IMG/VR virus record: IMGVR_UViG_2974592485_000001
Coordinates: 32,001-96,000 of that record
From: a virus
Lineage: Duplodnaviria; Caudoviricetes
Length of the DNA stretch: 64,000 bases
Direction: 5' to 3' (one strand)
Shown here: piece by piece, positions 5,588 to 14,403 of the stretch
Numbering within the stretch: position 1 is the first letter of the stretch
Layout: each line of letters begins with the position of its first letter
The notes under the pieces: generated by a model
Told to the model about the DNA's origin: nothing
The model's database searches: none
What the model saw: only the letters and a program-made list of their open reading frames with translations
Program-made: the position numbers and the translations under genes

Positions 5588-5661
5588 TGGACGACGATAC
5601 TGGATTTTAACCAGTCTAAAGAAGTTTGCAATTTCTCACCTAGTCACTCGGACAATCGTCG
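5588..5661 (-). tRNA. tRNA-Cys(GCA)
   Basis: GCA anticodon, U73 discriminator, CCA; atypical T loop TTAAAAT. Confidence 0.8.
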
Positions 5662-5687
5662 GTTCTTTACTAACTTTCAATATAAAT

Positions 5688-9972: not shown

Positions 9973-9974
9973 GT

Positions 9975-10960
9975 TGTATTTTTAAGAACTCTCGTAAAAG
10001 CTCTTAAAGATACTGACTAGAAATAGTATCCTGACGATACAGGTTTACTCCTAGTCAATAGTCTCAGTTTTTAAAGTCATGCGTAGACTTGTTCACGGTT
10101 AGTGGAGCTAATCTCCAACAGGTATTACATCCTAGACCTTATAGGGTCATGACTCCACATTTTCGTCTAGGCACCATCGCAACATATTTTGCGTGCACCA
10201 TCGTATGTTTATTGATGTCCTTTACCCATCTTCTCAATGAGTTATCCCGTGCGTTTGGTTGAGGGCTGAGAGGCCACCTCAGATTCACTCAACTATCCAA
10301 GCTCTGTACTAAACGTTACAAACTCGAACCAGAGCGTAGAGTTTATGAGCAGTTTTACAGTCTGACAACTGTACGGTTTAGCTATTTCGATCTAACCTTG
10401 ATAAGACACATCGTGGCCGATTTGCCCTCATAGTATGTACTCTAGCAGCGATCGCGTAGCTATACGCATCAAACACCTAACTCTTTCCCACTGTAGGACT
10501 CGAACCTACGCCTGTACCCCTAGGGTACTATCATTTCCAACTAGACCAAGAGGGCAGTGTTGTTACGTGATCAATTTCGACACCCCGTAATTTGTGGCTG
10601 GTACACCCCTAATAAGACATCCTATTGGCATCCTACTCCAGACATACACTTCCCACATTTAGTAAAGAAGAGTTTACGAGATTCTCAGTCAGCACTGAGG
10701 TTTTCTAGAGGAGAGCGAGCCACAATTCCGAACTTGTCATTCCTCAAACTCACAGATTCTCTCTAGGTATACTCACGATCCAGTTTCACCCGCTAAGACT
10801 ACTACATCCACGTGTACCTCAGCATAGTCTGCCTGCTGTTCTTTACTACATAAATTAAAGCATTTTAGGTGTGCGGTGTGGCACTTTAACCTCTTAAGAG
10901 TACCCGAAGTGAACTTTTAGGATCTGACTCCCTCTGTAAACCTTCTTTTCTTTAATTTAT
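9975..10960 (-). ncRNA. ~1-kb ORF-free structured RNA region with an embedded tRNA-like domain
   Basis: Lies directly below the promoter at 10967-10995; dense stems and pseudoknots; D/T-arm module at ~10486-10554 without CCA. Confidence 0.65.
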
Positions 10961-10966
10961 GAATCT

Positions 10967-10995
10967 ATTATACAGATTATTTAGCTAAAAAGCAA
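10967..10995 (-). promoter_or_regulatory. T5-type sigma70 promoter
   Basis: TTGCTT-17-TATAAT. Confidence 0.85.
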
Positions 10996-11003
10996 ATGAA
11001 TTT

Positions 11004-11276: not shown

Positions 11277-11722
11277 TTTCCTGCTTCTTTCAAAACTCTG
11301 TCAGCAATCTGTGATGCCATCTTACCATCATACTGACCAGCAAACTCTGCCTTAAGTAGTCGCATTAAAATGGCTTTAGTAATCACAGTATCTGTGTTTA
11401 GGTCAATAACTTGATTGAAGTACTGGACTAATTGGGCTTCCGATAGCAGTACAGGTGCATAACGTTCCCATAGCTCATCTAGAAGCTCTACAAACAGCTG
11501 ATCAGGTTGATAATCAATCCCCAGCTCATTGGCTTTTGCTTCCGTAGTCTCAATAGCTTTATTTTGAGACTTGATATATTTTAAGAGTTCATCACGACTA
11601 ATGTAATCTTTGTTTATACGTTGTAAGTCCCCTAACACTGTAGATACCGCTACAGTTGGATAACCGTTTTTACGAAAGGTTTCTAGGATTTCTCGTAGAA
11701 CCGTAAGCATATTTTCGCCCAT
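11273..11722 (-). CDS. GatB/YqeY-domain protein
   Basis: Helical protein with ...YAPVLLSEAQL... and ...GQYDGKMASQI as in YqeY; T5-like synteny. Confidence 0.75.
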   Translation of the reverse strand: MGENMLTVLREILETFRKNGYPTVAVSTVLGDLQRINKDYISRDELLKYIKSQNKAIETTEAKANELGIDYQPDQLFVELLDELWERYAPVLLSEAQLVQYFNQVIDLNTDTVITKAILMRLLKAEFAGQYDGKMASQIADRVLKEAGK

Positions 11723-11730
11723 GATACTTC

Positions 11731-12183
11731 CTATGTTTTTGGTTTATAAAACTTATGCCCATCTATTTTCTTTGTTTTATCTAAGCTCTTAGCCCAATAA
11801 GGGTCTTTTCCACTATGGAAATATAGTGCCCCATGTGTCAAGTCCTCTGTCCAACCTTGGTAATATGTGATTTCAGCTAGTTTCTTAGCCTTATCCCACG
11901 CTTTCTTATTTTTTATCTTTAAACTTTTGTGCTTAGTCCATGTGAATTGACTTGGCTCGTATACTACGGAACAATATGTTGTAGGAAATTTGTTACTATA
12001 AACCCTGTTCCTAATAACTTGTCCCACAGCAGCCTGACCTTCTAAGGAAGTACCTCTAGCTTCAAAGTATATAGCTTGTGCTATACAAGAGATTTCCTTA
12101 GTGTCTTTAGCACTTTTAGTAACCGTACCTACAGTATCATGAGGAATAGTTAGTAAAAGTGTTAACAGCAGCTCTGTTATCAT
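11731..12183 (-). CDS. SleB-like cell wall hydrolase
   Basis: CIAQAIYFEARG, AVGQVIRNRV, QFTW, GALYFH, IDGHKFY. Confidence 0.92.
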   Translation of the reverse strand: MITELLLTLLLTIPHDTVGTVTKSAKDTKEISCIAQAIYFEARGTSLEGQAAVGQVIRNRVYSNKFPTTYCSVVYEPSQFTWTKHKSLKIKNKKAWDKAKKLAEITYYQGWTEDLTHGALYFHSGKDPYWAKSLDKTKKIDGHKFYKPKT

Positions 12184-12191
12184 ATTACCTC

Positions 12192-12553
12192 CAGTTCTAG
12201 GGTAGCTCTATCCTGTAAACAGCCTAGCGGTGTTAAGAGTCATATCTTATGAACTGCTAACCGTTAGTCTAGGATTTCATTAGCTCTGTACTCTGTATTT
12301 TCAAGTTTGATCTTTCAAGTTTAAACTTTTATCGCTAACCTTTAAGCTTGTAAGCTTTAACCTTTGAAGATATGTTAGGCGCGCAGCCTATCAACATTTT
12401 AGAATACGGATTAAATGTCCGGTCTATAACGTCAATCTCCTAGTGAGATTTACCTTTAGGTTTGGTTAGCCACTAAGTTTAACCCCCCGACGTGGCTAAT
12501 AAGGGGTAAGATGTTATCAACTTCGTAAACAGAATAAAGCTACCTTAGAACTG
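12192..12553 (-). ncRNA. candidate ~360-nt structured RNA with an internal heptamer-repeat tract
   Basis: 25-bp terminal stem (two G-U pairs on the minus strand), pseudoknots, 13 in-phase ~7-nt units at 12277-12368. Confidence 0.75.
12277..12368 (-). repeat. degenerate 7-nt periodic tandem repeat (consensus ~ NTYAAAG)
   Basis: TTCAAAG GTTAAAG CTTACAAG CTTAAAG GTTAGCG ATAAAAG TTTAAAC TTGAAAG ATCAAAC TTGAAAA TACAGAG TACAGAG CTAATGA. Confidence 0.85.
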
Positions 12554-12578
12554 CCCTATTTCTAGGGCAGGATTACTA

Positions 12579-13211
12579 TCAAACTTCGATAGTAGTCTTA
12601 GCGTTAGACTCTGACAAGGCAAAGTCAACGTTAAGCTCAAAATCTTCAATAGACTCTTGAAGGGCTTTGATTCGAGCGTCAAGACCAATTGGGTCTAGGA
12701 CGTTAGGAGTGCTACGAACCTCGATAGGCTGAGTAATCATAGCAATATCCTCTGCGGATACCTTCTTATCCTTGCCAAAAGCTGCTGCTCTAGCGTCTTC
12801 TAGCTTCTTGTTAAAGCCTTCCAGACGAGTAGCATGCTCCCGATCCATTTGGATTTTCTGCTTAGTCATAGAGATAAGCAACTGCTTTTCATACCCAATG
12901 CTACGCTTAGCCTCAATTGCAGCAGCTACAGTCATAACCTTCTGACCTATAGTTACCTCTGTTACTGCGTTAGAGGCTACGATAGCTGCTTTGATCTTAG
13001 CTCGCTCAGAAATCATATCAGTAACACTTTGAAGTGCTCCAGTGATCTGGGAGGTCACGTCTTCTACGGTGTTAGAGTAGCCCGCAACCTTAGTAAAGTT
13101 ACCTGTACCATCTGTTTGTGCGTAAAACTTCAAACGAGGAAGCTCACGCTCAATTTTAGCATCCAGTGCCTTTGCAGTTGCCAGTGCTTTAGTAATTGTC
13201 ATAGTAGTCAT
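12579..13211 (-). CDS. coiled-coil protein (210 aa), loosely DIP1984/septicolysin-like
   Basis: Start moved to MTTMTITKAL (AGGAG RBS); long helices; C-terminus ...DFALSESNAKTTIEV. Family label is from memory and weak. Confidence 0.8.
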   Translation of the reverse strand: MTTMTITKALATAKALDAKIERELPRLKFYAQTDGTGNFTKVAGYSNTVEDVTSQITGALQSVTDMISERAKIKAAIVASNAVTEVTIGQKVMTVAAAIEAKRSIGYEKQLLISMTKQKIQMDREHATRLEGFNKKLEDARAAAFGKDKKVSAEDIAMITQPIEVRSTPNVLDPIGLDARIKALQESIEDFELNVDFALSESNAKTTIEV

Positions 13212-13251
13212 GTGTATTCTCCTAATTAATCTTTGAGGTTTAGTTTTTTTG

Positions 13252-13401
13252 TTATTCTTGGTTAATAACCTTAACCAGTCCACCTGTAGCTCGGTTCAGC
13301 AGGGCTAGTACTTTGATATGCCCTGAGGTAATTTCTTTCTGTTTACGTTCATCACGAGCTGAAGACTGTTTGATTTTGCGTGGCTTTTTGGATACTGGCA
13401 T
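13252..13401 (-). CDS. small basic protein (49 aa, MPVSKKPRKIK...)
   Basis: Hand-translated ORF with AAGGA RBS between the promoter and the coiled-coil gene. Confidence 0.6.
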   Translation of the reverse strand: MPVSKKPRKIKQSSARDERKQKEITSGHIKVLALLNRATGGLVKVINQE

Positions 13402-13432
13402 TTTTATTTTCCTTTGTTCAAATTAGATAAAT

Positions 13433-13461
13433 ATTATACGACATTTTTAAGCATCAGGCAA
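13433..13461 (-). promoter_or_regulatory. T5-type sigma70 promoter
   Basis: TTGCCT-17-TATAAT. Confidence 0.8.
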
Positions 13462-13469
13462 ATATAATT

Positions 13470-14159
13470 TTATACAAGCTGACTAATTAATCGGATTTCA
13501 AATCCTTCTACCAAGGCATCATATACGGGATCATGTTTGGTTGCAGTTCTAGCCTTTCCTAGCCCAAACATTTTGAAGTACTCGATTGTTAAATCTACCG
13601 CTACCTTCTGAATATCTGTTTTATACGAGTCTGCCCCGTATCTACTAGTATAAAGAGCACGAAGACTCCGGAGGTTTCCTTGCTGCCAAAAATCACATAA
13701 AGGTTTTTCAAACCCTAAGTCATGGTAGTGTGCTTCTAGAATCTTATGGTCGAACTCATTACCATTACCGTAGCTCATGTCATACTTACCCGTATTGGCA
13801 GAATACCATTGCTGGATATCCCTTAATACTTGAGTGTTGTTAGCTACTTTAACAGTAGGTATACTGTCTGATTCTTTGCCATATACTGTAACCTCTGGAG
13901 TAATATCTCCAGAAAGGATGCTAATAATCTCATCAGATGGCAACGTATTTTTATACGCTTCTTTCATCCAAAAGGCTATAGTTGAAGCTGTTGCTACGGC
14001 TCCTCGGTTAAATTGCTCCTCTACATTGAGAGTAGCCATGATTACCTTAGGATAATCATTATCGGGGAATACAGCAACTGCTACACTAGGCATAGCAATA
14101 AGGTTAGTTGTACCAGAGTTTGTACCTAAAGTCTCAATATCAATTACTGAAAATGTCAT
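13470..14159 (-). CDS. DEDDh 3'-5' exo(ribo)nuclease
   Basis: VIDIETLG, GNGNEFD, KHDPVYDA (ExoI/II/III motifs). Confidence 0.85.
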   Translation of the reverse strand: MTFSVIDIETLGTNSGTTNLIAMPSVAVAVFPDNDYPKVIMATLNVEEQFNRGAVATASTIAFWMKEAYKNTLPSDEIISILSGDITPEVTVYGKESDSIPTVKVANNTQVLRDIQQWYSANTGKYDMSYGNGNEFDHKILEAHYHDLGFEKPLCDFWQQGNLRSLRALYTSRYGADSYKTDIQKVAVDLTIEYFKMFGLGKARTATKHDPVYDALVEGFEIRLISQLV

Positions 14160-14184
14160 TAGTTTTTCCTCTTGTTAAAAACGC

Positions 14185-14403
14185 TTAACAATCTCTAGTA
14201 TTGTTAAGCCCTTTCTTGGGCTTTGGAGGGGTAATCCAGTCCTGGTCTACTCCCCAGTTTTCCTCATTACTAGGACTAATGAAACCATCAAACTCATCCG
14301 CCATTTCTAGCAACTGTTTAGTTGTAAGGCGCGTATAGTCCTTACCGGACTTGTGCGCGCCTCCTACGTTAAAGTCATGTTTTGCTACTAGATTATTAGA
14401 CAC
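14185..14403 (-). CDS. hypothetical protein (72 aa)
   Basis: ORF track; NxVAKHDFN...GAH motif seen in phage proteins. Confidence 0.7.
   Translation of the reverse strand: MSNNLVAKHDFNVGGAHKSGKDYTRLTTKQLLEMADEFDGFISPSNEENWGVDQDWITPPKPKKGLNNTRDC

Follow-up and report, generated by a model that had tools for sequence, protein, structure and literature searches.

A self-contained phage and bacterial module pairing a helical protein gene with a predicted knotted RNA that carries a heptamer array

We analyzed a 64,000-nucleotide (nt) stretch of a tailed-phage genome (positions 32,001 to 96,000 of IMG/VR record IMGVR_UViG_2974592485_000001; hereafter, the window). The source is a 106-kb T5-like phage (Demerecviridae) with 17 to 19 tRNA genes, and its nearest record is Pectobacterium phage My1 (~70% nucleotide identity across the locus considered here). 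On the minus strand of the window, a gene for a 210-amino-acid (aa) helical protein of the T5.085/phrog_1491 family (12579..13211; phrog_1491, E = 6e-72) is followed by a predicted noncoding RNA of ~360 nt that combines a long closing stem, two pseudoknots, and an array of phased units of ~7 nt. Comparative sequence analysis shows that this RNA represents a real, conserved, and strand-specific family and that gene and RNA are strictly linked in both directions, in phages as well as on bacterial chromosomes. The module is self-contained as a gene-RNA pair. We propose, with a probability of roughly 0.5, that the protein coats the array to form a ribonucleoprotein (RNP) and that the module is autoregulated.

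The ends of the predicted RNA are joined by the closing stem P1 (5' strand, 12529..12553, pairing with 12216-12192; 3' strand, 12192..12216; minus strand, as for all features given below), in which 22 of the 25 positions are Watson-Crick pairs, two are G-U pairs, and one is a mismatch; P1 shows one compensatory change relative to My1. It is followed by the junction UUACGAAG (12521..12528; family consensus after P1, CGAAAAC) and by the leader AUCUUA (12507..12512), whose long-range pairing with the loop UAAGAU (12249-12244) forms the second pseudoknot. The other, an H-type pseudoknot (12466..12506), is built from helix S1 (CCCC 12506-12503/GGGG 12486-12483), helix S2, which crosses S1 (UUAGCCAC 12499-12492/GUGGCUAA 12473-12466), and an A-rich loop (UUAAACU 12482-12476). 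Between this knot and the array lies a variable region with three hairpins (12376..12451; i.e., 12451-12434, 12422-12407 with the 7-nt loop CAUUUAA, and 12390-12376). The array itself consists of 13 phased units of ~7 nt (12277..12368; family consensus, YUNAAAG), with a lag-7 autocorrelation z of 5.8 and Tandem Repeats Finder periods of 14 to 15. The 3' domain (12220..12278) contains GAAAUCC, the helices P3 (CCUAG 12273-12269/CUAGG 12227-12223) and P3a (CGG 12263-12261/CCG 12230-12228), hairpin P4 (12255-12238), and an invariant CUG (12222-12220). No further array of at least five units, which might have marked a regulon, was found elsewhere in the 64-kb window.

Several of these elements had been described in an earlier, sequence-only reading of the window. 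The closing stem with its two minus-strand G-U pairs, the H-type pseudoknot, and the 13 phased units were all recovered, and the second crossing helix that it had proposed (12223-12230/12261-12273) proved to be P3, the best-supported helix of the family. The same reading had the array looped out by an 8-bp stem, CAUAUCUU/AAGAUAUG (12367-12374/12241-12248). This pairing exists in the window but is absent from My1 and all other lineages, where the conserved partner of the 12241-12248 loop is the leader (AUCUUA, 12512-12507, in the window). The window-specific pairing competes with the leader for the same loop and may be a chance complementarity or an alternative conformer.

Conservation of the RNA was assessed in ten annotated phages (My1, the T5-like phage phiLLS, T5, Vibrio phages JSF12 and Wyman, Cronobacter phage GAP31, Bacillus phage JBP901, Pseudomonas phage UAVern, Erwinia jumbo phage RAY, and Lactococcus phage P1048) and in 80 loci from viral contigs, 52 of which were nonredundant. 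All ten annotated phages have an unannotated gap of 360 to 500 nt 3' of the gene, and the My1 gap aligns end to end with that of the window, with stem and pseudoknot retained. The common architecture runs from P1 through a CGAAAAC-like junction, the leader, the H-type pseudoknot, a variable module, and the ~7-nt array to UCGAUAAAAUCC, which leads into the 5-bp P3, an internal hairpin, P3', GCUG, and the 3' strand of P1. The repeat tract and covarying stems that the sequence-only reading had expected downstream of homologues were found.

A P1 stem next to the CGAAAAC junction and the GCUG motif could be identified in 45 of 46 lineages. In the alignment of 42 lineages, no sequence lacks the P3 pairing, and covariation is seen at four of the five P3 pairs, with as many as six pair types at a position; the covariation score of P3 (0.52) exceeds that of shuffles (0.19 ± 0.02) and drops when the partners are slid. 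The leader-loop pairing differs in sequence by lineage and keeps its complementarity (e.g., AUCUUG/CAAGAU, UUAAAUCA/UGAUUUAA, UCACGCA/UGCGUGA, and CAAAUG/CAUUUG, among others), scoring 14.3 for partners from the same lineage versus 11.1 for mismatched lineages (permutation P ≤ 2e-4). An equivalent H-type knot, again with differing sequences, is present in nearly all lineages (phiLLS, GAP31, JSF12, Wyman, UAVern, RAY, and metagenomic lineages), and the best-knot score lies above the shuffle mean in 45 of 45 lineages, these statistics coming from a per-sequence search whose automatic parse does not always select the same helices. The periodicity is shared as well: the best lag was 7, 8, or 14 in 43 of 46 lineages, and the spacing of AA[GC] across lineages peaks at 7. 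Fold energy alone does not choose the strand, because the plus strand (z = -5.3 versus shuffles) scores nearly as well as the minus strand (z = -6.0). The G-U pairs and compensatory changes fit the gene's strand only.

The 3' domains of 37 lineages, with the window phage and My1 left out, were used to build a covariance model (R1). R1 has a single match in the window (12210-12285, minus strand; 31.9 bits; E = 1.5e-6, the E values of this model being rough owing to a shortened calibration), which is also its single match in the whole 106-kb genome. It likewise matches T5 (NC_005859, 43,149-43,224, minus strand), My1, and RAY. The other marks of the family accompany the match in the window, i.e., the H-type pseudoknot, the leader-loop pairing, P1, and an array with a period of ~7 nt upstream of AAAUCC.

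Among phage records, 728 from very diverse groups hold a homologue of the protein, and the pair of gene and RNA was found in T5-like phages, Vequintavirinae, Bastille-like phages, jumbo phages, and phages of Vibrio, Pseudomonas, and Lactococcus, with the RNA placed 170 to 480 nt behind the protein homologue. When viral loci were entered from the protein, 46 of the 52 nonredundant loci showed the RNA by its pattern, and R1 recovered the other six. The reverse direction was examined by a plain motif scan of viral contigs, in which chance matches dominate. Among 20 matches with an intact P3, 17 had the protein gene 208 to 484 nt upstream, and the three without it equal the number expected by chance; three additional matches with a single P3 mismatch each also had the gene upstream, and no matches beyond these two kinds did.

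The linkage extends to bacteria. In contigs sampled at one genome per species, 171 stretches encode a relative of the protein, and the best 80 loci were tested; R1 matched in 77 of them. The 78 R1 matches in these 934 kb all lie on the strand of the gene and 170 to 360 nt past its stop codon, with none elsewhere. As for the three misses, one locus (L213) was matched at a weaker threshold, another is a 1-kb contig, and the third (L253) gave no R1 match even at an E value of ≤1 in ~590 nt of sequence past the stop codon. A metagenome-assembled genome of Parabacteroides contains two 3'-domain matches 360 nt apart behind one protein gene (L214:5248-5326 and 5610-5684), possibly tandem RNAs. About 25 Lysinibacillus species among the retrieved loci carry the pair. 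At three loci whose neighbors were examined (Lysinibacillus, the Bacillus pumilus group, and Brevibacillus), it stands amid ordinary chromosomal genes (fumarase, a major facilitator superfamily transporter, AhpC, a Crp-family regulator, an amino-acid permease, and a two-component system), and neither phage genes nor tRNAs were found within 6 kb. In many phages and metagenome bins, by comparison, the pair lies inside or beside tRNA arrays on the same strand. The gene downstream of the RNA varies (a hydrolase, tRNAs, or unrelated genes).

Existing annotation of the module is sparse. No RNA is annotated in the gap in either of the T5 records examined, and the record of T5 st0 (AY692264; L006:5160-5957) places T5p083 on the strand opposite to T5.085 of NC_005859; T5p083 is probably a miscalled open reading frame (ORF) over the real gene. 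In public databases the protein is widely labeled a "tail fiber protein." This label rests only on propagation through PHROG and RefSeq, and no tail-fiber Pfam domain supports it. It is contradicted by the position of the gene in the early region, with genes for tRNAs, nucleotide metabolism, an exonuclease, and RNase H, and by the stand-alone chromosomal copies.

In a confident AlphaFold2 model of the protein built with 32 relatives (predicted local distance difference test score, 90), the long helices run antiparallel and one end carries a small sheet of four strands. Invariant positions across relatives comprise two SNA-x-T motifs together with a few Lys, Asn, and Asp residues. A sequence-profile search of the PDB returned coiled-coil noise only. 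In structure comparisons with the PDB (Foldseek and VIA-align), the best match was 3kdq, a Corynebacterium protein of unknown function (E = 0.012; Z = 9.9; root mean square deviation, 6.4 over 151 residues), and the others were generic helical bundles; BFVD and the ESM Atlas contained uncharacterized relatives only. Weak CARF-type matches were confined to residues 46 to 117 (CARF_m13, E = 3.7e-4; Csx1, E = 5.9e-3; Crn1, 13 bits against a cutoff of 125). Because the model shows a helical bundle with a four-strand minisheet rather than a Rossmann-like fold, an identity as a CARF protein or ring nuclease (Crn1 or Csx1) was set aside, and these matches are probably noise.

Separate lineages carry tRNA-like parts at the variable site, which follows the H-type pseudoknot and precedes the array. 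Complete tRNAs occupy it in L056 (2238-2311) and L085 (2203-2266), and lone T-arms occur in L083 and L088, near position +110 past the stop codon. Erwinia phage RAY has a permuted YrlA-like piece (L009:2154-2217; RF02553, 44.5 bits, below threshold). The T5-like loci L013 to L037 carry a hairpin with a 7-nt loop ~135 nt past the stop codon, as do L050, L077, and L008; the loop sequence is CUUUUAA at 12 loci and CUCUUAA at 4, these being the anticodon loops of the two Lys tRNAs. Such Lys-anticodon-like hairpins are found in the T5 and Pseudomonas groups. The equivalent hairpin of the window (12422-12407) reads CAUUUAA, that of My1 differs, and many lineages have none. The tRNA-like parts are thus not conserved, and the window is without a clear one. 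Covariation of the anticodon-like loop with the repeat unit was considered and is not supported, the hairpin being lineage specific. The repeated insertion of tRNA-like parts at this site nevertheless hints at a connection with tRNA or translation.

On these observations we base the following model. The gene of the ~210-aa helical protein would be cotranscribed with the ~360-nt noncoding RNA, which would start a few bases past the stop codon. The long stem would close the ends of the RNA and, with the H-type pseudoknot near the 5' end and the long-range pseudoknot between the leader and the 3'-domain loop, would form a rigid core from which an array of about a dozen YUNAAAG units, for the most part unpaired, would project. 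The adjacent protein would coat this array, with a protomer on each unit or a dimer on every two (a 14-nt subperiod would fit dimers), and the outcome would be an RNP whose size is defined. At the ribosome-binding site (RBS) of the gene, one to three similar units would let free protein repress its own translation, and the RNA would thereby set the amount of free protein. We infer the binding of protein to RNA from the strict linkage and from the repeat-like units at the gene's own RBS. In the window, two phased units (ACUAAAC and CUCAAAG, 13231..13244) lie just 5' of the Shine-Dalgarno sequence (AGGAG, 13223-13219) and constitute a candidate autoregulatory site. Across the family, repeat-like units occur at positions -35 to -1 of 56% of the genes versus 33% of control ORFs bearing a Shine-Dalgarno sequence (Fisher P = 1.4e-4), with no enrichment farther upstream. 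Such a pattern would be expected if the protein bound RNA, controlled its own synthesis, and were titrated by its RNA partner.

Several observations weigh against this model. The RBS enrichment is modest (1.7-fold), overlaps the context of AAAGGAG-type Shine-Dalgarno sequences, and comes from sequences that are not phylogenetically independent. The protein is near neutral (isoelectric point [pI], about 6; 4.9 to 8.7 among relatives), and no recognizable RNA-binding domain was found by family, sequence-profile, or fold searches. Parts of the array can form weak A-U hairpins in the minimum-energy fold. Linkage alone would also fit a protein that merely processes or chaperones the RNA or is regulated by it. 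As for what a protein-coated particle would act on, we lean towards a universal part of RNA metabolism or translation, because the pair stands alone among housekeeping genes in Bacillales and lies in or beside tRNA operons in many phages. The fuller proposal, in which the doubly knotted RNA serves as a ruler that assembles ~12 protein copies on the heptamer track into a self-sufficient RNP with such a target, is less likely than not and is put forward tentatively.

A different division of labor would make the RNA the working part, either by itself or together with a host factor bound to the array (e.g., the ribosome, an RNase, PNPase, or tRNA enzymes), and would leave the protein as a helper in folding, processing, or stability. 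The elaborate fold, with two pseudoknots and a long closing stem, would suit such a role, as would the protein's lack of basic character and the repeated insertion of tRNA-like modules at the variable site; the unit consensus is also kept from phages of Proteobacteria to chromosomes of Firmicutes, as expected for a universal host partner. A mere helper, however, should have been lost or replaced somewhere, whereas linkage, order, and spacing are kept over wide distances that include the stand-alone chromosomal copies, and the repeat-like units at the protein's own RBS point to a protein that recognizes the unit. We regard this alternative as rather unlikely. The position of the module in or beside same-strand tRNA arrays raises the idea of a decoy or shield, whose 7-nt units, resembling anticodon loops or codons, and tRNA-like modules in some lineages would soak up anticodon nucleases of the host or protect phage tRNAs. 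The unit has the length of an anticodon loop, the T5-group hairpin loops are both those of Lys tRNAs, and full tRNAs, T-arms, or a YrlA-like piece are inside the RNA of other lineages. These parts are, however, lineage specific, from CAUUUAA in the window and another loop in My1 to none in many lineages; the Bacillales chromosomal copies lack nearby tRNAs and have no obvious need for a decoy; and the protein would be left unexplained, all of which makes the decoy improbable.

The sequence-only reading had also raised a likeness to type III toxin-antitoxin pairs, in which a harmful or strongly regulatory protein would be sequestered by the repeat RNA. A protein gene tightly linked with a repeat-bearing RNA in one transcription unit, the presence of the pair on mobile elements and chromosomes, and the terminator-like hairpin between gene and RNA in the window phage and My1 are all in its favor. 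That hairpin is missing in T5-like phages, though, and the comparison breaks down at the toxin family, the length of the repeats, the order of the genes, and the architecture of the RNA: there is no signature of a ToxN/AbiQ/CptN-type or other nuclease, the units are 7 nt rather than 34 to 45 nt long and lie downstream rather than upstream of the gene, and antitoxin RNAs lack a large conserved nonrepeat core. The spread over about 25 Lysinibacillus loci looks, moreover, like stable inheritance. We give a toxin-antidote function only a slim chance. Least probable by far is that no RNA machine exists and that the region is a cis-regulatory untranslated region or terminator of a flanking gene, or a DNA element such as iterons, an origin, or a recombination site. 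The plus strand does fold nearly as well, the 3' strand of P1 does abut the RBS of the next gene, and short A/T-rich repeats can serve as DNA-binding sites. Yet G-U pairs and compensatory changes fit the gene's strand only, the model matches are strand specific (78 of 78), the downstream neighbor varies, covarying pseudoknots would be meaningless in duplex DNA, and a period of 7 bp is out of step with the helical repeat of DNA. Compared with these alternatives, the protein-coated, autoregulated RNP is the reading that we prefer.

All genes at the locus lie on the minus strand, in the order exonuclease-like gene, promoter-like site, 49-aa ORF, 210-aa ORF, a 395-nt stretch without ORFs, and a cell-wall hydrolase gene. 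The sequence-only reading had given the same succession of promoter, 49-aa basic ORF, 210-aa ORF, and ORF-less stretch, and these are present; no ORF of at least 30 aa was found within 12184-12544 on either strand. The promoter (TTGCCT-17-TATAAT, 13433..13461) is the best sigma-70-like match in 11600-14300 (10 of 12 positions) and is a consensus match only. The 49-aa basic ORF (13252..13401; pI, 10.7) has a weak phrog_5252 match. Its homologues were found only in My1 and T5-like loci, and it was rejected as a third or core component of the module; the interpretation given in the sequence-only reading is, overall, partly supported. Three successive in-frame stop codons (TGA TAG TAA, 12573-12581) end the 210-aa gene. 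Directly 3' of them lies the hairpin CUGCCCUAG-AA-AUAGGGCAG (12551..12570), the last 3 nt of which are shared with the closing stem. This hairpin is terminator-like without a U-run, was not scored as a terminator in our scan, and is kept in My1 and missing from T5-like phages. The predicted RNA begins ~26 nt past the stop codon, and at its other end the 3' strand of P1 abuts the Shine-Dalgarno sequence (12192-12188) of the hydrolase gene, whose ATG is at 12183. Elsewhere in the window, ~1 kb without ORFs lies between two tRNA genes on the same strand (9973-11003). The edge of a metagenomic phage locus with the module (L054:1-185) contains a partial group I intron match (41 bits) whose 5' end is cut.

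Large, intricately folded RNAs of unknown function are rare in bacteria and phages, and each one solved so far has revealed new biology. The special features here are the dedicated protein partner and the two pseudoknots that would hold out a phased 7-nt array. The module ranges over hundreds of phages from unrelated families and includes chromosomal copies in Lysinibacillus and related Bacillales. Because it is present in the model phage T5 (T5.085 and the adjoining unannotated gap), it is directly testable by standard genetics and biochemistry. The analysis also corrects the widespread "tail fiber" label.

Only a fragment of the RNA, from one lineage, is already catalogued, as the orphan RAGATH-27. 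In agreement with the sequence-only reading, the locus matched no characterized family in Rfam, in PDB profile and fold searches, or in the ESM Atlas; Rfam gave no match on the window at the gathering score and none at 12100-12650 even at an E value of ≤10. RAGATH-27 (Rfam RF03100) is a candidate small RNA of 86 positions with one annotated hairpin. Over its full length it aligns with the initial 86 nt of the RNA in a metagenomic phage (L086; 59 bits; E = 1.7e-7), covering the 5' strand of P1, the CGAAAAC junction, the leader, and one of the two pseudoknot helices. This is its best match anywhere, although it lies below the gathering score of 76.1, and RF03100 did not match the T5-like, Vibrio, Bacillus, Pseudomonas, or Lactococcus versions. 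Given the end-to-end alignment, RAGATH-27 is therefore a catalogued fragment of the present family in one lineage. The Rfam entry leaves out the second pseudoknot strand, along with the array, the closing stem, the 3' domain, and the partner gene, and its relationship to the window would rest on shared architecture rather than on the model. The name RAGATH denotes RNAs near twister and hammerhead ribozymes. In L041, a type-P1 twister match below threshold (2487-2548; 41 bits; gathering score, 67; E = 1e-5) begins 4 nt past the 3' end of the RNA; it could define that end, and it fits the naming. Our literature search found no paper on the module, its function, T5.085, DUF7203, or RAGATH-27, and no mention of the module was found in a catalogue of ~10,000 viral structured RNAs (PMC10690425) or in a study of tRNA arrays (PMC8421152). 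The protein-RNA anti-CRISPR AcrIIIA1 was considered and rejected; that protein has a mass of 10 kDa, and its ligands are fragments of host t(m)RNA (PMC11662646).

Several known systems resemble the module in part. In Bacillus, HutP reads NAG triplets 7 nt apart on the hut mRNA, and TRAP acts on the trp leader. The likeness lies in a protein oligomer on evenly spaced short RNA motifs, the units here being in effect AAG-N4. The RNAs of TRAP and HutP are, however, mRNA leaders with 6 to 11 triplets and no structured scaffold, whereas the array here is in a stand-alone knotted RNA. No Pfam or NCBIfam match to the MtrB (TRAP) or HutP families was obtained, and their structures were absent from the Foldseek and VIA-align lists, with which a distant fold similarity is still compatible. 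The CsrB and RsmZ sponges titrate CsrA and RsmA through GGA motifs in hairpin loops. They resemble the proposed system in that an RNA with a short, much-repeated motif titrates a protein that meets the same motif at the RBS of its mRNA targets, and they differ in motif, protein fold, and layout, sponge and protein being unlinked; searches of the window with Rfam- and Pfam-type models gave no Csr-family match. Type III toxin-antitoxin systems (ToxIN, CptIN, and TenpIN) share the operon of protein gene and repeat RNA, the hairpin between them, and the occurrence in phages and bacteria. Their repeats are pseudoknot units of 34 to 45 nt upstream of an endoribonuclease toxin, with no large nonrepeat core, while the units here measure ~7 nt, come after the gene, and form part of a structured RNA of 360 nt. 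No ToxN/AbiQ/CptN-type endoribonuclease was matched in Pfam, PADLOC, or NCBIfam, and the helical-bundle model is unlike their folds, although fold searches cannot exclude a distant similarity.

The remaining parallels are with the Y RNA (YrlA, RF02553)/Ro60 particle and with the large RNAs OLE, ROOL, and GOLLD. No Rsr (TROVE) protein was present among the window neighbors tested, and no YrlA, OLE, ROOL, or GOLLD Rfam match was obtained at the window. None of these RNAs has a heptamer array, and the tRNA-like part is not conserved in the present family. The likeness to this group lies in the paired RNA ends and in the tRNA-like internal module of some lineages. As with oapA and OLE, the partner gene adjoins the RNA gene, and the phage and tRNA neighborhoods recall ROOL and GOLLD. 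If the ruler-like reading is true, the module would represent a new class of RNP, on par with the OLE or Y RNA particles, that is used by large tRNA-rich phages and by Bacillales cells.

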